From contig JAYWIR010000003.1 of the NCBI GenBank assembly GCA_036172245.1, forward strand, positions 3,286,001 through 3,350,000: a stretch of DNA of 64,000 bases. Reading direction: 5' to 3'. This stretch comes from Raillietiella orientalis (lineage: Eukaryota). Below, in pieces: positions 3,260-62,373 of this stretch. The translations under genes and the position numbers were made by a program. Each line of letters opens with the position of its first letter. The first letter of the stretch is position 1. The notes below the pieces were generated by a model. That model did no database searches. It was not told the DNA's origin and saw only the letters and a program-made list of their open reading frames with translations.

Positions 3260-4330
3260 AAAGCACCAACCTCGTGAATTCATCTCCGATGGCGGTGTGC
3301 GACTCGAACGGTGTCCACGACACTTGATGCCAGCCTGCCTTTCCTTCAGCTTCTACAGAAGCTGCAAGCACTGCTGCACGAGCATTCGAATTCCACGAAT
3401 CCAGGTGGCCGATACTGTCGACGGCTGCGGATGAGGCAGGCTGCGTCGGTGCGCGACGTGTCTGCGTGTCCTCTCTGCTCACTGCTTTTCGAACGAGCGC
3501 AGTGTACGTGACTCCCTTGATCGGACGGTTGTTTCGCTTCGCGCCGCCTCTTTGAAGAAGCAGAGGGAAAAGGTGGGGGAAATCCATCGGTCCAGAAACG
3601 GTCGATGTCGGTGCCCTCGAGGGGTCTCTGATGGCTCTCATGTTCCAAATGAGCCCGTTGGCGGCCGCACGTCTACTGCGGCCGTGCGTGGCAGCGGGCG
3701 TCGCCGGTATCGGATCACCCGTGTAAGGACGACGCTGGTTGGCTCGGGCTCAGGGTGTGGCGTTGGTGTGACGCTTATGCGCGTTGGCCACCGGTGGCCC
3801 ACTGACCAGCCGGAATCGTGAGTGAACCCTCCTGTGTCTTCCCAGGAATCAAGGGGGTGGTTCCTCGATTTCTGGGAGGTTTCATCCGAAGAGTTAGGCA
3901 GGAAGCTGACCCATCCTCGGGGTCATTCCTAGGTATGAGGGTAGTTTCTTTGCGGTTTCCTACTGACTGCGTGGAACTTTCGGGTGGCAAGGCAGTGGAA
4001 AAGAGCCTTGTGGAAGCCTCCATCTGGTGGGCGGTGCAGAGCCGCTCCGATATCCCTATGGGATGAAGCAACTGTTCTTGAGTGCTTGGCAGACCGAATG
4101 GAGAAAAAGAGAAGTTTGAAGAACCGAAGGATTCCCATAATCTTGGACCAATAGCAACGACCATCTCTTGAGGTCATTACTGGCATTTAAAAAAAAAAAA
4201 AAAAAAAAGGACTCCCGTCTTAGACCAGCGAGAGAGTCCACCAGTTTGCGCAACTCTCCGTCTTGGGGTGTCCGGCGACGTCGGTTGCCGGGTTCCGAAG
4301 CGGTCACCCGTCACCCCATACGCAAAAGTT
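3260..4330 (-). mobile_element. Degenerate LINE ORF2 fragment (EN-RT linker and early RT)
   Basis: LLLQRGGAKRNNRPIKGVTYTALVRK resembles RT subdomains 1-2 (xxRPIxL..Y). Upstream LIPGK resembles the GKxPGxDG region. Heavily frameshifted. Confidence 0.45.
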
Positions 4331-12339: not shown

Positions 12340-13005
12340 AGCGTGGATTCGGCGATGTTACTCCAGCATCGGGGCAGTTCATCTCAGAAATATTCATGCC
12401 CCCTCCCTCCCCGTCTTCCGGGGGATAGTGCGGTAGCATGGAAGCGAGTCCTTCACTGCCTGCGCAACGCCGCAGGAGGAGGCGTGAGGGCGCCCACAAC
12501 GGGTCCGAACTTGGATCCCCCAGACCGACGCGGTCTGCAACCCTCGCCTCCGCAAGGAGACTTCGGAATGGAAAGCGGCATAGCTTGGCTCTAAGGGCGA
12601 GGATCCAGAGCTGCACTTGCAGTTCCTCTTCGTCCAACTCCAAGGTAGCAGAAGGCTGCTGCCTGCATAGGATCGTAGCGGTCTGAAGCACGACGACAGT
12701 GGCGTCATCCATTTCGTGGACCTCTTCTTGAGGAGAGCGTCAAGGTGTCCCGAGGAACTTGCCGGCATCCTGGAAAGGATGTTGAGGACTCCCTCCTCCA
12801 GCAGGCCGTGATCCCTTCCCGAACCCTCCCAGTTTTTTTGTATGTATATTTTTTTATTTTTTATTTTATTTTTGTTTGCCCTTCCCCCTCTACCGAGGCG
12901 AACCTCACCGGGCTGCGTACCGGTCCTCGGCAAGTTCTCACTGTTGCATTTGCGGCATCTATATTTATTTTATGTCAATAAACACCTTACAGTGATTCCA
13001 GGTAT
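12340..13005 (+). mobile_element. LINE 3' fragment
   Basis: GAACTTGCCGGCATCCTGGAAAGGATG C-terminal motif, T-rich UTR, hairpins and AATAAA at ~12977. Confidence 0.8.
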
Positions 13006-13519: not shown

Positions 13520-14357
13520 TAAGTCAGGAAAAAACTTTCAAGGGCGTGGTCAACTAGGCAGAAAGCGGGTGCTGCGACCCCGATCGTTTTGCCAAAATGT
13601 ATTCCACGCTGGAGCGAGATGCTCGCGATACCTCTGGAGGAAGTGAAGTGGCCCCCAGGGTGTTGGGACAGTAGCACCCTCCCTCTGAAGTGGCAAGAGG
13701 TGGTGTCGCTAGTGTTGCATCGGGGAGTCCTATGCAAAGCGCTCCTCCATCACTGGACACGGGGTAGCGTGGATGCGTAGTGGGACGGTGCGGAGAGAAG
13801 ATCACATTTATTAATAGACTTCGTCGGCCTCCGAGTCCTTTGGGATCAACTTTCGTCGATCCTTAAAATCCCGGTAGGCGAGCCTAAGAACATTTTCCGG
13901 AGTCTCTTCATGCGTGACGCCCTGCTCCTGGCCGCGTCTCTAGTAGTGCTCTGCTGTGTACGCGGAATCGTGGCAAGCTGCAACTCCAGAAGAAGGGGCC
14001 ACAAACAGCAAGGGTGTCACCCATTGGACGGGAATCTTCTTGAAGACTGCTTCCCGATTGTCCCAACTGCAACCAAAGAATGCAGAACTTGCCAGCATCA
14101 TGGACAGGATGCAGAAGACGTCTCCAGGAAAGCAGTGATCCTTCTCCGCCTCCCTTTTTCCGAAAAACTCCTACACCCCATTTTTTTTTTGTGGTTTTCC
14201 CTTCCCCTTCCCCTCTAAAGCGGACCTCACCGGTCTGCGTACCGGTTTTTGGCAAGCCCATCGCGCGTGGTAGAACCAAGCGTTCTATCACGAATTTGTA
14301 ATGTTTACGAGTTTTATTATAATTTTTTTAACAAATTCCCCGGCAAATCCGGGTGAT
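13520..14357 (+). mobile_element. LINE 3' fragment with complete 3' end
   Basis: RWSEML..LPLKWQEVVSLVLHRGVLC, IFLKTASR..ELASIMDRMQK, all 3' hairpins, terminal CCCGGCAAATCCGGGTG. Confidence 0.88.
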
Positions 14358-14403
14358 GAACCACCCCACGGGTCGGCTGCTGAAGAAGTCCGGAGCGGGA
14401 GGA

Positions 14404-14423
14404 TTAGGTTAGGTTAGGTTGGG
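14404..14423 (+). repeat. Short (TTAGG)3-TTGGG run matching the arthropod telomeric motif
   Basis: ttaggttaggttaggttggg seen directly, between two convergent LINE 3' regions. Confidence 0.5.
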
Positions 14424-14424
14424 A

Positions 14425-16150
14425 AGTCCTAGGGAGGGGGACAATGAATCGATAAGAAAGAGAGGGAGGGAAGGGACAGGGTCCCCGGTGCAAGCAGCTC
14501 TTCTCTACAACCGGCGCTGAGTGGTACCGATCACCTTGGAGACCACCTCGCGGCCGTTCTCGTGTGGACGGCTGCCACGTGGGTGACCTCCCTTTTGCTG
14601 CGGACCCGAGATCCTGGCGCGCAGAGGGGACAGCAACGACGGCGTGGATGCAGCATCCTGACGTGATCACGGCGCTCGCCGAGAAGTTCGCCACTCGCGC
14701 AACACGCAGAGGATCCGCCTCAGCAGGCCGCGGGTAGCGGCGCTCCCGGCGCAGGAGCGCTGAGACGGCCGACTTGAGGCCATGGTTCCTGGAGAGCACA
14801 GCAGTCCGGAAGCAGATGCGGGAGGGGGGGAGGAAGGTGATTCCGGCTGACCTGCACGAAACAAGGCGCGGGTCGCCCCGTACTGCACCGGGATGCCTGG
14901 TTCAGGAAGAGCACCACACCACAGGGAATGCGGAAGCGTTCCAAAAGCATGTTGGAGGAGGGAGCACAGGTTCCCCGGAAAGCTGACTCCACCGAAGGAG
15001 TCCCGCCGCCATAACACTAGCGTCCGCCAACCCGCGCCGTCCTCCAGCCGCCGAGGGGTTTCGCCTTCATCGCGATGGTGCAGGGAAGTGCCCACCTCGC
15101 TGTCGCCAAGCTGTCGTAGCTTGCCCCCAGGGCAGGAGGCGCTGCGGCGAGAGGGGGGTGGCGGCCATGGTCCACCACTCTGCCGCGTCCGGCGTCATCG
15201 CTTCCACGGATGGGTAGGCAATTCTGGGCCGCCTCCTACCCCTCCGTATTCCCAGCAGATACCCACCAGCCTCTGGCTGGTCTCCCTCATGTGCCCTTGC
15301 CAGCCTCCTCCTCGTCGTCCTGCCGCACTGGCAGATCAGCGACGATGCCTCCGAGGTCGTCAGCAGCGCTGGCTTCCTGTTCTTCAGCCTGCTGTTCCTC
15401 CTGCCCACCGCTGTGCAGCCCACGATCCTCACTTGCAAGTTGCTCCGCCTTTCACCTTCGGGACCCACCTTTCCTTCATCTTTCCACCTTCCCCTTCTGG
15501 TTCCGTTCAAGAGGACGGTCTTCCGAAGGGGGCACCTGAACTACTGGTGCTCCCTGAAGGCTCACCACCTGGCGAAGCCGGTCGCCAATCTGCCCTTCCA
15601 AGTGGCCTTCCCCCGCGTTCTACCTGGTGGTTGTGTACTTCGTGACCCGACAGCCCCCTGGGTGCCGCCCGCTTCTCCATGGTCCCGTCCATGCGCGTGG
15701 TGACCCCGCTGGTCTTCCAGAGAGTCATCATGGTCATCGGGTCTGCGCTCTCCACTTTTCTCGGCCATATCGTCTCTCATCCTCCTGCTCCAGTTCTTCT
15801 GGGTTCTTCGGGACCTTCGACGAGATGATCCCTCCCCGTTCCATGAGGTGGTTCGCCTCATATCTCACACCCGGTACGTGCGGAGGCGCCACGCTGGCCA
15901 TCCACGGCCGCACCTCGACTGCCACAGCATCTTCTGCTCCTTCACCAACCTGGAAGACCTCCTCAACGAGCCAGGCATCGTCGACGCGACCTTCTACGCC
16001 GGCCTCCCAGCCCTCGTGGTCACATGGCTCGCCCTCGGGGTCCTTGGCGGCTTCGTGCTGCGGTGGTAGCTGCGACAGCAGAGCTGATAGGCCGCCGCCC
16101 GCCTCCCGGACGCCATTCAGGCCTGCGACAACGGTGACTACGAAGACGCA
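14425..16150 (-). mobile_element. Older LINE ORF2 fragment (related subfamily)
   Basis: 14960-15210 aligns by eye with 16750-17030. AYPSVEAMTPDAAEWWTMAATPL resembles PYLPLEDVMPCKWTSLAAMSL of the 5000-8550 copy. Confidence 0.55.
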
Positions 16151-18429: not shown

Positions 18430-19250
18430 ATTTGCCACCCGGTCACACCGGGGTCTTTATTAGAATTCTCTATAAAAATCGTGGTACTAGGCCCCACTAC
18501 GGTCACCACAACGCTGGACCTGCTGGGTCGCCGGTACGCAGACCAACGCGACTCTCCTCGTCAGCGGAAGGGAATGGGGGAAAAAAACAGAAAGAAAAAT
18601 AAAACAGAAAAAAAGGAGATTTTGGAGGGTCGGGAAGGGATCATCACCCACTGGGAGGAGGGTCCATCCTTTTTAGGATGCCCTCGAGGTCCGTCCGAAT
18701 TCTTCCAAATTGGAGTTGGCGGGCTGCATACCATTCAGCCGTTCTCCTTGGCCAGTGTCGCCATGCGCCCGAGGAGAAGGCCACATCTTCTGGTCTTTCG
18801 GCCTGGGCACAAAAGATGAGACGCGAGTCCTTGCGTCCTGGATACACGCCTGGCGAGGAGGCGGGGAAAACGCACCAGGGAGTGCTCCAATACTTCGCTG
18901 CGATGGCCATGGTGCGCCATCGCAGCTAAATTTCCAAGCGCTCCAGCGTCAGGAGGTCGAGACCGCCGTCCCGATGCGGAGAGCAAAAGTCCTTCAGAGG
19001 GACTCGGGGCCTCCCGTTGCTCCACAGGGCGATACGTAGGAGGTCCTCCGTCTGTTTCTTCAAGAAAGAGAGGAGTCCTTCGTCCGTTTCTTTCGTTTCC
19101 TGGGGGAGGGGGAACTCCGGAGGAAAGAGGTCCTCTCTATTCTCTCCGGAAGGGTTCCCAGGAGGGGCTTGCTCCCGGTTTCTTCCTCCGAAGAAGGGCG
19201 CTCCCCGAAGGGAGTAGCGAATTTATTTCCACTCTGGAGAGGCAGCATCA
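18430..19250 (-). mobile_element. LINE fragment with 3' end
   Basis: KYWSTPWCVFPA resembles NHWTTPWCAPA of the 8551 copy. DLEGILKRM C-terminus. Terminal hairpin 18436-18454 after AATAAA. Confidence 0.75.
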
Positions 19251-19259
19251 ATCCACCAG

Positions 19260-20552
19260 CTCTATGGCACGAGACATAGGGTCCCCCCAGGAAGAGGAGG
19301 GGACGTCTCCATTTGCATAGCAGAAGGGGAGTTTCGGAAGGGAGCGGTCTCCTTGGTTCCTGGAATGACCCGGATGGTCGACTCCCAATCCCGGCCACTC
19401 ATCGGGAGCATCCGGGGTTTCTGAATTCCACCATTTTTTTTTTTCTTTGGTTCGTTCAGCACCTCGAGAGATGTCGCGCGCCTCGCGGCTCACGCAGCTC
19501 TTCAGCGCTGTTCCACGCCACTCGAGGGTGCGCTGAAAACTCCGTTAGGAGGAAAGGACTAGGCGAGTGGACGACGGACCAGCTCACCGACACTGCCACC
19601 CCGAGTGCTCGATCTCGGGGACTTTTGCGCTTGGGTGTGCTACTGGATATTACGGAGGAAGACCCGTAGTGGGCCTCGGCGCTCATGAACAACCGCACCC
19701 TCCCCTTGAAGTGGCAGGGGTCGGCGCTGCTGCTGCTGCTGCACTGGGGTCTCCCGTGCAACGTCCGCTGGCATCACTAGACACAGGGAAAGGGAGTGGC
19801 CCCGAATTGTGCCAGATGCGGGGAGCGAGAATCTCTCCCGCACCTGCTAGTGGACTGTGCTGTCCTCCGGTACCTTTGGGGACGCTTTGCCGCGATCCTT
19901 GGAACCCCCGGAGGCAGCCCCAGAGTCGTTTGGAAGCGCCTCTTCCTGCGCAACACCCTCACGACGGCCGCATCCCCAGCATCACTTCGCTGCCCACGCG
20001 GCGAGACCGTGGCAGCTGCATGGAGCAATGCCAGAGGAGGCCAGAACGACAGGGACGCCATCTATTTTGCTGTCCTCTTAACGAGGAAACCGTCAAGACG
20101 GCCCCATCTGGGAACCTTGAACAGGATGAATTGTCGGCATCCTTACAAGGATGCAGGACTGGAGGACGTCCTCCAGCACACAGTGATCCCTGCCCGAACC
20201 CCTCTTTCCTTTTTTTGATTGTACGTTTTTTTTTTTCTTTTTATTTGTCTCCCCTTCCCTTGTGTAGCCGAGGCGAACCCCACTGGCCTGCATGCCAGTT
20301 CCCGAGAGGTTCCTTTTAGTAGTCATAACTGCTAGAGAGATACCTCATAACTGGGGCGAGCTACTGGATGTTCCTCTGGAACATCTGAAGTGGACTCCGG
20401 TGACTCATGGACACCCACACCCTTCCCTTGAAGCGGACCTCGCCGGTCTGCTTACCTCTCTTCGGCAGGTTCATTGAGCGTGGTAGAACCAACAGTTCTA
20501 CCATAAAAATGTATTTTTATTAGTAAAATGTCCCGGAAGAACCGGATGAGAA
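19260..20552 (+). mobile_element. LINE 3' fragment followed by a second, internally deleted 3' fragment (20335-20552)
   Basis: LGEWTTDQLTDTATP, PNCARCGERESLPHLLVDC zinc finger, DAIYFAVLL. The 3' UTR motif occurs twice (~20270 and ~20430). Terminal hairpin 20531-20548. Confidence 0.9.
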
Positions 20553-20559
20553 TCATCCT

Positions 20560-21345
20560 AGTTTCATCCATCCCGGCAAGGTGGGAAGTGACTCGCTGCA
20601 TAGCAACAAAGAAGGAAGCATTGGGAGCGTGGGCAATTCGGGAAGTGATGGACGCTGCTACCCCGAGTGTCCCGTCAAAAGAACTTTCACGCTGGGGCGA
20701 GCTGTCCGCAATCTTCTTCCGCACGTCCGGAGCGGCCCCAGAGTGCTGGAACTCTCAAATGGTGGGAGTTGGCTTTGCTGGTGTTGCATGGGGGAATCCC
20801 GTGCAAAGCGTGCCGCTGGACACGGGGCAGTGTGGGTGCGGAGTGGGACAGGTGCGGCGAGAAGGAGACCTTCACCCACCTGTTGCGAGATTGTACTCTG
20901 TACCACCCTTTGGGATCGTCGACGGACGACCCTAGGAATTTCGATGGACAGCCCCAGGGACACTTTCATACGCCTCTTCGTGGGTGGTGCCGCGCTGCCG
21001 CCAGTCGCGTCCCTCGCAGTCCTCTGCTGTTTCCACGGGATCGTGGAGGCCTGGAACATGGGAAGAAGAGGCCGTAATGGCGCAGGGACGCTACCCACTG
21101 GGCATAGATCTTCCTGAGGACCGCCACGAGATGGATCCACCTGGGAGACATACGAAAGGAACTTGCGAGCATCCTGGACAGGATGCAGAGGATGCCTCGC
21201 AGAAAGCAGTGATCCCTTCCTCGACTGCTGCCCCCCTTCCCTTTACCGGCCTCTGTTTTTTGCTTTTATTTCTCCCTTCCCCTTGGCTGCCAGAGCGGAC
21301 CTCGGCGGTCTGCGCACCGGTACTTGACGGGCTTAGCGCATAGAA
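20560..21345 (+). mobile_element. LINE 3' fragment
   Basis: IPARWEVTRC..LGAW..DAATP..RWGEL, DRCGEKETFTHLLRDC, family C-terminus and UTR. Confidence 0.88.
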
Positions 21346-23439: not shown

Positions 23440-24400
23440 GAAACACCCGGATGCATCGGGGTGTTTATTTTGAAAATAAACATATACATGCGTAGGGCCA
23501 TCGGCCCTACGACGTCCGGAAGAGTTCAGAATTTGCCGAGTAATCGGCACGCAGGCCGCCGAGGTTCGCCTCGGCAGTGGAGGGGCACAAACAAAAAGAA
23601 AAACGAAAACACTATTTACAAAAAAAATGGGGAGGGTTAGGGAAGGGATCACCAGGAGCTAAAGGGCGTCCTCTGCATACTTTCCAGGATGCAGGCAATT
23701 TCCACCCGAGTGTGCCCTAGGTAGGATCATCTGGCTGCCGTCCTCAGGAAGCGTAGGGCGAAGCAGATGTACGTCCCTGTCCATCTCTGGCGTAGCTCCA
23801 GACCGCCACGATCCCGTGTAGGCAGCAGCAAAGAGCTGCTAGGGCTGCCGCGGGCGAGAGGGCATCCCGCACGAAGAGGTGCTTCGTCACGTCCCTGGGA
23901 TTGTCCGTCGGTGAACCAAGGGCCGTTGTGTAACGCAACCACAGGGACTGGAGGGCAACACAGTCTACAAGCAGGTGCAAGAAGAGCTGGGATTCCCGCA
24001 CCCCGTACCTGCAACAGTTGGGGTCCACAGCCCTGTGGGTTCAGTGAGACCGGCGGACGCTGCACGGGAAACCCCAGTGCAACAGCAGAAGTGCCGACTC
24101 GTGCCACTTCAGGGGAAGAGCCCTGTTCTTCTTCAGTGCTGAGGGCCATTGGGGAATCGACGGTGGGAAGGTTTCTCTGGGGAGCTCTATTGCTCCCTCC
24201 GAAATTCATGCTTTCTCCCTCGCCAAGGTGGCTGCTGGAAGAACAGCCAAACAATCAGATGGTGTTTTGGGAGAGTAGGACTTTGGATATGGATCCTGAG
24301 AGGGACACTCTTCGTGAGTGAATGCTCTGTCCTTTGGAATAGACTAGAGGGGAAGAAGGAGTACCTGTCCTTTTGGAAAAGATGAGGAAAGAAAAAGCTT
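23440..24400 (-). mobile_element. LINE 3' fragment with complete 3' end
   Basis: PNCCRYGVRESQLFLHLLVDCVALQSLW..HLFVRDAL..LCCCLHGIVAVW. Terminal hairpin 23444-23463. Confidence 0.88.
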
Positions 24401-27879: not shown

Positions 27880-28480
27880 GGGAGCGGGAAAGGAGAGGAG
27901 GGAAGGGGACATTTTTGGGAAGGGTCAAAGAAGCTCAGAATATCGGAATTGCGAAGGATTCCTCCCGAACACGTCATACCTACCAAAATCTTGTAGGCGA
28001 AGTCTTCGCGCGCCACGATGCGTATATGTCTTTTACTGCTGCTGTAATCAGGCCTTCGCTCTTGGAAGACGGGCTTTCGAGGACCTGTTTCTCTTGACAA
28101 CAGCTCCTAATGGTTTCCGAAAAGGCTGATAGTCTCGGATTTTGAGTCGTCACACCCCATGCTCTCCGCTCACTCGGAAGAGCGCTCTATTTCAAACGAC
28201 CAACTCAAGGATGAATCCTCATTCGTCTTTCATCGGTTCTTCTGTAAGAAACGTTTCGAACGACATCTTCTCTTCAAATTTTCCGGGACTGTCGGCCGTA
28301 AGAGCTCGTGCCTTTTGCTTCTTGTAACTTTGCTTCATCCCAGAAGAGGCGATTCCCTGCCGGAAACTCCAGGAACAGCAACGCATGCAAGTCCGCGTTC
28401 TGTCATGCATTTGGCGTGCCCTCCGCAAAGATTTCTGTGAAATTTCGGTTTGGTCCTCCCTTCGTTCCCGTCTTCCCAAG
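27880..28480 (-). mobile_element. Degenerate LINE ORF2 fragment (pre-RT region)
   Basis: Weak resemblance to the linker and PGxDG region preceding RT. Frameshifted. Confidence 0.35.
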
Positions 28481-28489
28481 TTCGGATCC

Positions 28490-29990
28490 CTCAACGAATT
28501 TGTGTTTCCTGAAAGTGGAGGAAGGGATCTGAGACATCACCGCTTTCTCGCACGCCCTTTTGCCACTTGTGGATCTGATGGGGAGATCCACCCTTCCACG
28601 TCCGGCATATCTGGGACACGGGGGAAGGGGGTGGACTTAAACTGCCCCAGGTGAGGGGAACGTGAATCCCAGCTGCAGCTGCTTGTGGATTGTGTTGCCC
28701 TCTGTCCCCTTTGGGAACGCTTTGCCGCGACCGGAGACAACTCCAAGGACGCTTTACGGCTTCTCCTCCTATGCGACGCACTTCGGCCGGCAGCCTCGCT
28801 AGCAGCTCTCCACCGCCTACGAGGGATCGTCGCTGCCTGGAGCGACGCAAGAGGACACAGCGACAGGGGTGCCACATCCACTTCGCCGTCCGCTTCATGA
28901 GGACCGCAACAAGATGGTCCCACCTGGACAATAACATCCAGCAAGACCTTGCCGGCATCCTCCAAAGGATGCAGAGGACCGCGCCTAGCAGACAGTGGTT
29001 CCTTCCCACTCCTCCTTCCGAATTTGTTTTATTTGTATTTTGTTTCTTTTTCTTTTTGATCGTAAGAGCTGGGTGTAGAGGCGAAAGACGAATGGAACCA
29101 TCTGGTAGCTGCTGGTTTCCACCGAAGTTTCCCTCAGGATAGCTGGCGCTCGCCGAAGTAGGAAAAGAACGGAGTTCATCCGGTAGAGCAAATGAATAGA
29201 GGCCTTGGATCCGAAATGACCTCAACATATTCTCAAACTTTAAATGGGTAAGAAGTTAGGTTTGCTTGAAAGCTGGACCGCTTACCCATTGGGAGACGGA
29301 CTTGCGCTCTCTCCCCCCGACTTCAGCTCGGACTGTCAGATCCATGAGCTCTCGGTGGGCCAATTTTGATAAGCAGAACTGGAGCTGTGGGATGAACCAA
29401 ACGTTGGGTTACGGCGCCTGATGCGACGCTTATCAGATCCCATGAAAGGTGTTGGGTGCTATGGGCAGCGGGACGGTGGCCATGGAAGTCGAAATCCGCT
29501 AAGGAGTGTGTAACGACTCACCTGCCGAAGCAACCGGCCCTGAAGATGGATGGCACTCAAGCGTCGAGTCTGCTCCCAACCGCCGGGACAGAGCCGTTCC
29601 TGCCTTCCGGAAGTCGCCTCGGGCTCCGGCGAGTCGGAGGGTCGCGACGGGGCTCGCAGAAGGGTTTGGGCACGAGCTCTCCTGGAGTCACCTCGGCGCA
29701 GATCTTGGTGGTAATAGCAAATACTCCAGTGAGATCCTGAAGGTCTGATTTGGAAAAGGGTTCCATGGGAACAGTCTTTGAGCATGTCCAGAACAGCCAT
29801 CGGTCCTCAGTCCCCGGTTTGTGTTCCCCTCTGCTGCCACGGTGGACCTCACCGGTCTGTGAACCGGTAACGCAGCAGATGAGAACGGAAAAGGAAGTGC
29901 TTGGACCAGTGGTCCAACCACAAAGATGGTAAATTGTCTTATTGTTTATTTAATTTATGAATAAACGCCCCGGATCACCCGGGTGACAAC
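28490..29990 (+). mobile_element. LINE 3' fragment whose 3' UTR is split by a 28S rRNA fragment
   Basis: LNCPR*GERESQLQLLVDCVALCPLWERF zinc finger and DLAGILQRMQR C-terminus. The T-rich UTR runs to 29057 and resumes at ~29817 (GGACCTCACCGGTCTG). AATAAA 29960, terminal hairpin ~29966-29985. Confidence 0.88.
29058..29810 (+). pseudogene. 28S rRNA: Degenerate 28S (LSU) rRNA fragment, ~750 nt, ending at the start of the D7 region
   Basis: Eukaryotic LSU core strings in order: GGCGAAAGAC..GAACCATCT, CCGAAGTTTCCCTCAGGATAGCTGG, TATTCTCAAACTTTAAATGGGTAAG, AAGCAGAACTGG, GGACGGTGGCCATGGAAGTCG.AATCCGCTAAGGAGTGTGTAAC.ACTCACCTGCCGAA, GATCTTGGTGGTA.TAGCAAATA, AAGGGTTCCATG, TCGGTCCT. It has substitutions in near-invariant positions and no flanking rDNA, so it is non-functional. 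Confidence 0.95.
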
Positions 29991-31149
29991 GCATGCCCCA
30001 ACGTGGAAGATTTCCTTCTCCTTCTCATCTTCCCTTTGTTGTTTTCTAGGCGGGGTTTTTACGTTTCCTCACTTTCGGTTCGAACCACAATGAGACATGG
30101 CCACATTCAGCTGCCTACCCAATGGAAGCGGACGCTGAAGACAATGCAGCTACCTCAGTGCAGAAAGCCTGCCGTGTTCGTCGTCCTCTTGAAAATGATC
30201 CATCGCGGATATTCGAGGAATTTGGCAGACTGGCGCTTAATCGAAGCGATTGAAACTCATCTGTAACCATAAACATCTCTCGTGCACAGTGAAGACTGCT
30301 GATAAAAGGAAAATGATGGATGGTGTGCGTAGATGCATATTCCCCGCAAATCAATTAGGACGAGAGGTATTTATAGGTTGGTTAGAGAGCTTCTTTTGTC
30401 GGTCGTCCACGTTCGTTCGCTTTGCAATTGTCTGCGCCTTCTTGTGATAAGAAAGAGACCCCCAATAGCCCTGTCGCAGGCTTTCTTTGGGATGACTAGG
30501 AAGATGACAGGCATGTTCATTCAGGAGTCGACACCACTGGGGGCAGAAAAGACTTGGCAGATTGAATGGGAGAGGTAGCTGAAGTGCATTCCTGTTGCTG
30601 CCGTTCTCATTGCAAGAATTTGCGTAAACTAAAGGCGAATTTTGTCGAGAGGGAGAAACGTTTCTCCCACCTTAAAGTCTTCTCTTTTTCTTTTAGAGGA
30701 ATCCTCGCTTGAAGTCGACCCTCGTGGACCAGATCCGGTTGTGCGCCAAGTCCGGTTACCACGGTCACAACTCGGAGTGCCGTAAGCACCAATTCACAGA
30801 GAGCAAGAAATCGAAGATATAATTGGGGGAAAGTTAGGGACGTTTCAGATAACCTTGCTGGAGCTCCTTTGCTTTCGTTTGCCGTGTGATTTCCTGGCAG
30901 TTTGTTTGTTTGTTTTTTCCATAGCTTTCTAAACGACAAGACTGAATGTCCCCCTCCTTTTTTTTTTGTCTTTTCTTCTTCTCTTTCCAGTGCGTGGGAG
31001 GAATATGTTCGCGCCGAAGAGCCTGAAAAAGTACAGATAGAACAAGTAGCTCATTTGCATCGCATTTGATGCGCTGATCCCTCCATAACTGTCTCAATTG
31101 TAGGCCATAAACAGCAGGACGGGCGAGGCCGATCACGCGCTCATTTTGA

Positions 31150-42028: not shown

Positions 42029-62373
<20,345 letters not shown>

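Follow-up and report, generated by a model that had tools for sequence, protein, structure and literature searches.

Chimeras of LINE sequence and cellular RNA are raw material of SINEs and a record of how LINE reverse transcriptases (RTs) behave in vivo. Closest to the locus described here are the 28S/L1 chimeras of primates, in which, as here, 28S sequence is fused directly to the 5' side of a LINE 3' part, mostly in the sense orientation (bioRxiv 10.1101/2025.02.02.635956). The authors ascribe these loci to template switching or RNA ligation during target-primed reverse transcription; as described there, the primate chimeras are bipartite, with 28S segments of 50–482 nt that often start near human 28S position 3636 and with an L1 part that carries poly(A). 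A three-part arrangement is described for the WEIRD/Mg-SINE/MGL composites of Magnaporthe: as at our locus, three retro-copied segments stand head to tail with the LINE part at the 3' end. The Magnaporthe segments derive from three different transcripts and are flanked by a 14-bp duplication, and these tripartite retrogenes have been taken as evidence for two LINE RT template switches in one event (PMC2104539).

Two further systems provide points of reference. SINE28 of mammals is a 28S-derived sequence mobilised by LINE machinery, which is what our locus would also be under a LINE-origin reading; with 27 loci in humans it is multicopy, it stems from the 28S 3' end, and its transcription is by Pol III (PMC4994717). 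For the genesis of SINEs by template switching the expected order of parts is a body abutting the 5' side of a tail (PMC5786205). Dispersed rDNA pseudogene fragments (Robicheau 2017, as cited in PMC10946416) and fragments of cDNA or DNA captured at double-strand breaks share with our locus an internal rRNA segment that lacks poly(A) and duplication and has clean junctions with an overlap of 0–2 nt.

Here we describe a 28S rRNA fragment embedded in a LINE copy, found in a 64-kb stretch of DNA that was analysed as a whole and is referred to below as the window. The window has a G+C content of 57% and an observed/expected CpG ratio of 0.94, i.e. no CpG depletion, which points away from vertebrates. 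It also contains a Pax3/7-type gene downstream of the composite: a paired-box exon at 50034–50378 (+) (Pfam PAX, E 3.3e-59) and an exon at 61014–61481 (+) with homeodomain positions 1–46 (E 1.6e-14). Between the composite and the paired-box exon, which share a strand, lie ~20 kb. With such a gene, the DNA comes from an animal.

A 28S rRNA fragment inside a LINE copy

The original prediction had described a tripartite structure, the ORF2 end and U-rich UTR of a LINE, a sense 28S fragment at 29058–~29810 and the tail of the LINE, and this anatomy is confirmed, with coordinates that were right to within a few bases (Table 1). A scan of the whole window at Rfam gathering thresholds matched LSU_rRNA_eukarya (RF02543) at 29116–29698 (+) with 345 bits against a gathering score of 50, and returned no other match in the 64 kb. 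The left flank is identified by BLAST against other copies of the same LINE family and the right flank by a hidden Markov model (HMM) of the family tail, both detailed below.

Table 1. Parts of the LINE/28S composite, in 5' to 3' order (positions are those of the window)
Feature	Positions	Strand	Basis
Decayed, 5'-truncated C-terminal coding part of LINE ORF2, CCHC zinc-knuckle region	28570..28998	+	BLAST, translations, protein alignment
Proximal LINE 3' UTR with T-rich tract, ending ...CTTTTT	28999..29057	+	Aligned with the T-tracts of 8 other copies
Sense 28S rRNA pseudogene fragment	29058..29816	+	Rfam RF02543; each boundary ambiguous by 1–2 nt
LINE 3' tail, resuming GTTTGTG..., with three hairpins and terminal motif	29817..29986	+	Tail HMM, folds, shared motif

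We delimited the rRNA part by scanning sub-stretches. The left limit of LSU homology falls at 29056–29058 (model 893–899), where the window reads UUGAUCGU against the consensus UCGAUCGU; the right limit falls at ~29787–29810 (model ~1535–1548), with the last confident homology at ~29787. The motif that the fragment had been claimed to reach, TCGGTCCTCAG, is indeed present at 29800–29810 and corresponds to consensus GUCGGUCCUAAG at model ~1537–1548. An antisense ORF at 28494–29255 agrees independently with the left boundary obtained from the Rfam sub-stretch scans: its residues 1–66 align with database ORFs derived from rRNA, which are spurious ORFs predicted on the rDNA of other organisms, and the alignment then stops, residue 66 corresponding to base 29058. 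A permissive Rfam run raised the LSU score to 386 bits and drew the match out to 28741 and 29927. We regard this over-extension (~300 nt to the left, 120 nt to the right) as an alignment artefact, and reject the extension to 28741 because the left flank on its own (28400–29057) gave no LSU match at E ≤ 10 in an Rfam scan.

The fragment is 759 nt (~760) long and spans the LSU model from ~893/899 to ~1548, plus 6 nt. It comprises parts of domains II–III, from D3 to D6, with its 3' end at the start of D7a, and it is not a full-length, intact rDNA gene: only model positions ~893/899–1548 of 3401 are present. A hand count on the Rfam alignments gives mismatches at 34 of 345 highly conserved consensus positions (~10%), the conserved positions being those in capitals in the Rfam consensus. 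A 3-nt insertion at ~29109–29112 interrupts a universally conserved core helix, and single-base deletions occur in core helices. Given the mismatch level at conserved positions and the core-helix insertion, the piece is a pseudogene, which argues against misjoined functional rDNA.

To the left of the rRNA lies the end of the LINE coding sequence. The start of the ORF2 remnant is approximate, being 28615 by BLAST and ~28570 by translated similarity; the remnant carries an in-frame stop and a frameshift, and the position of the family stop codon is occupied by TGG in the focal copy (28996–28998). The 28S piece begins 59 nt past this former stop codon. By BLAST, 28615–29057 aligns with four other copies in the window, at 19780–20242 (+), 24028–23592 (−), 9093–8703 (−) and 10591–10311 (−), with 66–67% identity over 289–474 nt; further family copies lie at 20837–21319, 13823–14291, 12693–12938 and 18700–18460. 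The translations of the family share a CCHC-type C-terminus (...C..C.......HLL.DC...LW...), and a homologous stop follows ~100 codons on in 6 of 8 copies.

Protein searches are consistent with this being the C-terminal part of a LINE ORF2. Two of the five copy fragments matched the Pfam family zf-RVT (E 0.0028 for a sister copy and E 0.22), both under the 27.5-bit cut-off. A profile of eight family fragments retrieved seven proteins at E ≤ 0.001 from 1.84 billion representatives: one 87-aa close relative (E 9.8e-13) and six others (E 7.6e-5 to 8e-4), all six with zf-RVT, in five cases above the Pfam cut-off. None of the seven carries an RT domain, no RT or endonuclease family was found among the 142 stop-to-stop ORFs of at least 150 aa in the window, and all LINE copies in the window are 5'-truncated. 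The ORF2 end of a sister copy was also compared with longer proteins to place the LINE clade, and nothing was found. On these results, 'LINE ORF2 end' seems a reasonable name for the coding part of the left flank, at the level of LINEs and not of a clade (L1, RTE, CR1/L2 and so on).

The right flank is the tail of the same family. A tail HMM built from eight other tails, with the focal tail left out, matches 29823–29869 at E 1.1e-8, and also a tenth tail at 18577–18484 at E 1.6e-5. The window thus holds at least ten family tails at E ≤ 1.6e-5, eight used in the HMM and two not. The bodies upstream of them vary in length, and in one copy the tail stands alone; as expected of a LINE, many copies share their 3' end and are truncated to different extents on the 5' side. 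The family tail is ~170 nt long and follows the T-rich tract. The focal tail and the copies ending near 14340 and 23450 have in common the hairpins and a terminal motif, AATAAAC-CCCCGG-loop-CCGGGTGA. Folded as RNA, the two halves of the focal tail reach −30.4 kcal/mol each, with z-scores of −2.88 and −3.50. Five of the 12 folded tail segments, namely the two halves each of the focal and the 23.5-kb copy and one half of the 14.3-kb copy, have z ≤ −2.5; the other seven range from −1.85 to +0.59. The hairpin stems of the tails at 29817–29986, 14190–14362 and 23445–23593 (−) differ in sequence between copies while pairing is kept. Overall, the tail has the look of a 3' UTR whose structure is what is recognised; an AATAAA-like motif lies ~20 nt from its end, and there is no poly(A). 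We also considered metagenome loci as relatives of the LINE tail and rejected them: one query yielded no confirmed relative; a degenerate 20-nt tail pattern returned at least 119 loci, the one locus inspected looks bacterial, and the scores of the 13 of these loci that reached E ≤ 1e-3 in nhmmer (16.3–20.3 bits) rest mainly on the typed 20-nt match.

The copies are clustered. Between 8400 and 30000, ~22 kb contain at least ten 3' ends of this one family, on both strands, all 5'-truncated and with pairwise identities of 57–73%; the second half of the window contains no family 3' end. Two family tails stand in tandem at 20251–20352 and 20423–20514 (+), ~70 nt apart. The second, which is the tail-only copy, has its start immediately 3' of where the T-tract would be: it aligns to the tail model from position 15, the focal copy from position 6. 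The tandem suggests insertion beside an existing 3' end and copying that terminated at the U-tract boundary. At ~14400–14430 (+), ~50 nt past the 3' end of one LINE copy, three TTAGG-like units form a short run.

Junctions, the hidden break and relative age

In all eight other copies that have both parts, the end of the body and the tail are contiguous. The sister copies at 23590 and 8690 read ...TTTTTCTTTTT GTTTGTG/T... across this point, and the 20250 copy has ATTTG there; the focal copy reads ...TTTCTTTTTCTTTTT, then the 759 nt of 28S, then GTTTGTGTTCCCC. When 29058–29816 is removed, the focal LINE reads CTTTTT followed directly by GTTTG, as do the copies at 23590 and 8690: no LINE base has been lost or gained. 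Overlap at the junctions amounts to 0–2 nt; each junction is ambiguous by 1–2 nt, with G at both ends of the insert and UU versus UC at the left. The parts are fused directly and in the same orientation, and the LINE 3' part stands at the 3' end, which is the arrangement expected of a template-switch chimera.

That the rRNA piece bears no poly(A) and no obvious duplication had been noted in the original prediction and is borne out. The 3' end of the piece has no A-run, and no direct repeat around it is longer than an ambiguous TTTG; a target-site duplication of up to TTTG could be present, since the LINE itself repeats TTTG there. For the composite as a whole, comparison of 28440–28660 with 29975–30030 revealed no convincing flanking duplication: the two stretches share just one 7-mer, located inside LINE homology, and one 6-mer, and decay of ~24% may hide a duplication.

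The original prediction had further raised the prospect of a multicopy, SINE-like 28S family, which finds no support: the 28S piece is the sole LSU match in the window, and protein searches with the two junction ORFs returned no junction-spanning relative, a result that carries little weight since it depends on open frames in other copies. The left-junction ORF had five protein matches, of which the two aligned ones are confined to the rRNA part (residues 1–66) and the other three cover 13–26% of the query; the right-junction ORF had none.

The 3' end of the fragment had been placed near the hidden break of protostome 28S rRNA. In pancrustaceans, according to PMC12880105, CCTAAG marks the start and CGAAAGGG the end of D7a, which is 93–98 nt long in two ostracod entries; the gap left by excision is internal to D7a, in an AU-rich portion. 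For species that have the break, an average distance of ~118 nt is described between the two conserved markers on either side of it (PMC6925239). The fragment ends 0–6 nt past its CCTCAG, a motif of the CCTAAG type. Since D7a begins at this motif and the gap is located deeper within it, the fragment ends near the expected 3' end of 28S-alpha and not at it, and the link to the hidden break is weaker than had been proposed. By comparison with these annotations, the 3' end of the fragment is at the 5' edge of D7a, probably some tens of nt before the point where a 28S-alpha would end.

Against the plurality of the other copies (421 columns), the LINE body of the focal copy shows 75.8% identity, inside the family range of 65–81%, and so a divergence of 24%. 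Subfamily differences inflate this 24%, which is not comparable with the ~10% at conserved rRNA positions; the two values hint at most at an rRNA piece younger than the LINE parts.

Routes to the composite

The explanation that we tentatively place first, while allowing it somewhat less than an even chance, is that the composite is one old, dead retrotransposition product generated by a double template switch of the LINE RT. While this 5'-truncated LINE copy was being made by target-primed reverse transcription, the enzyme would have begun with its own RNA, copying the structured tail of 170 nt. At the boundary of the tail and the U-tract it would have left the LINE RNA for the abundant 28S rRNA, of which it copied ~760 nt, beginning at the D7a start and running back into domain II; it would then have resumed the LINE RNA at the next base and copied ~490 nt more before truncation. 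The exact return might have been possible if the nascent cDNA was still base-paired with the tail from which it had just been copied, on that same RNA; alternatively, a single cut of the LINE RNA in the U-tract could have led to end-to-end jumps across three RNA pieces. That all three parts were made in one event, that the source of the 28S was RNA and that the enzyme returned exactly to the LINE RNA is what we infer from the following features. The 28S piece, in sense orientation, directly precedes a complete LINE tail, an order of parts that is canonical for LINE-RT chimeras. The tail has kept three strong hairpins, with stems that differ from those of the sisters, and resembles a tail that was still recognisable to the enzyme when copied. 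The insertion site is the boundary of two 3' UTR modules, and the tail-only copy at 20423–20514 indicates that copying by the enzyme can end nearby. The 3' end of the piece lies within a few tens of nt of the point where a protostome 28S-alpha would end, poly(A) is absent, duplication around the rRNA does not exceed the ambiguous TTTG, and junction overlap is merely 0–2 nt. Precedents are on record both for 28S/LINE-1 chimeras in primates, with 18 loci of which 83% are sense (bioRxiv 10.1101/2025.02.02.635956), and for tripartite chimeras produced by two switches (PMC2104539). However, the model does not predict a base-exact return to the LINE RNA and needs an auxiliary idea for it; the tripartite chimeras described in PMC2104539 join three different RNAs and are not of the A-B-A type; 759 nt exceeds every 28S segment in the primate chimeras as reported (50–482 nt; bioRxiv 10.1101/2025.02.02.635956); a duplication flanking the whole composite was not found; decay may have gone less far in the rRNA part than in the LINE body (~10% versus 24%, measures that are not comparable); and only a single locus is known. 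The template jump and return proposed in the original prediction is thus partly supported: anatomy and orientation are as it would lead one to expect, and the exact rejoining would be explained by later insertion as well.

Such a later event, at the DNA level, is a possibility to which we give somewhat less credence: an rRNA cDNA or rDNA fragment would have been captured at a break in the T-tract of a resident LINE, for example by end joining. Base-exact rejoining then needs no extra assumption. The LINE is colinear, with no base lost or gained and overlaps of 0–2 nt, as in a clean end-joining capture; body end and tail are contiguous in 8 of 8 other copies; dispersed pseudogene fragments of rDNA are on record (Robicheau et al. 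2017, as cited in PMC10946416); and mismatch stands at ~10% in the rRNA, counted at conserved positions, and at 24% in the LINE body, counted from the family plurality, although these values were obtained in different ways and subfamily differences inflate the second. It would be a coincidence, or a consequence of T-tract fragility, that the piece adjoins the tail and runs in the direction of the LINE. Chance must then strike, within a base or two, the one boundary at which LINE and SINE modules usually meet, and in the orientation of the LINE. Nor does this reading specifically predict an internal 28S fragment with its 3' end at the D7a start. The single-event and later-insertion readings are close, and the route by which the composite arose lies beyond what a 64-kb window can show. 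Less probable than either, and in our view unlikely, is that 28S was already present in the 3' UTR of a source element, either a LINE or a short non-autonomous derivative of one, from which this copy descends as one member of a multicopy subfamily. The structurally intact tail, whose first hairpin has an outer stem different from those of the sisters, would fit a distinct subfamily, and the 5' truncation is typical of an ordinary daughter copy. Against this, the piece is the only LSU match in 64 kb despite ten family tails, and the junction ORF searches (five matches, confined to rRNA where aligned, and zero) point weakly in the same direction. An improbable route involves only one switch: a bipartite retrocopy of 28S plus tail would have inserted into the T-tract of an older LINE, and recombination between the new and old tails would have removed one of them. 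Family tails do land side by side, as in the tandem at 20251–20352 and 20423–20514, but an extra, scarless step is needed and nhmmer found no second tail or remnant beyond 29986 (E ≤ 10 in 29990–30400). We consider an assembly artefact, with rDNA reads misjoined into a LINE copy, very improbable indeed: the piece is decayed (34 of 345 conserved positions differ, with the 3-nt insertion and small core-helix deletions), and the LINE continues in exact colinearity past two clean junctions.

Within the double template switch, a more specific version is that the RT, at a point 59 nt past the ORF2 stop codon, made an excursion from its own mRNA, to the 28S of a ribosome on the same mRNA or to the free 3' end of 28S-alpha, and returned to the very next base. 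We regard this version as a long shot. If other loci carried rRNA at the same U-tract/tail boundary, it would imply a recurrent footprint of the RT meeting the translation machinery on LINE RNA; if true and recurrent, such excursions would lead directly to SINE-like elements with a 28S body and a borrowed LINE tail.

Comparison with known composites

The consequences of the two leading readings differ. If the composite arose in one event, an RT can leave and precisely re-enter the same template, which the chimeras described in the work cited here do not show. If the rRNA was inserted later, the locus is one more dispersed rRNA pseudogene, of little consequence. Captures of cDNA or DNA fragments at double-strand breaks have no reason to be found at the boundary of UTR and tail modules in the orientation of the LINE, where the 28S piece lies.

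A single decayed locus is a pointer to a genome-wide search rather than a result, and the described systems indicate what sets it apart. In contrast to the primate chimeras, the 28S part is 759 nt long, comes from domains II–III, has LINE sequence on both sides and is followed by a structured tail without poly(A). While the Magnaporthe composites combine different transcripts, parts 1 and 3 of our locus come from one LINE, in which they adjoin, and are joined again to the base; a flanking duplication was not found. Unlike that of SINE28, the 28S fragment is internal (model 893/899–1548 of 3401) and is known from one locus. The structure, represented by this one decayed locus, is an unusual variant of the known LINE/cellular-RNA composite, of the A-B-A type and exactly rejoined.
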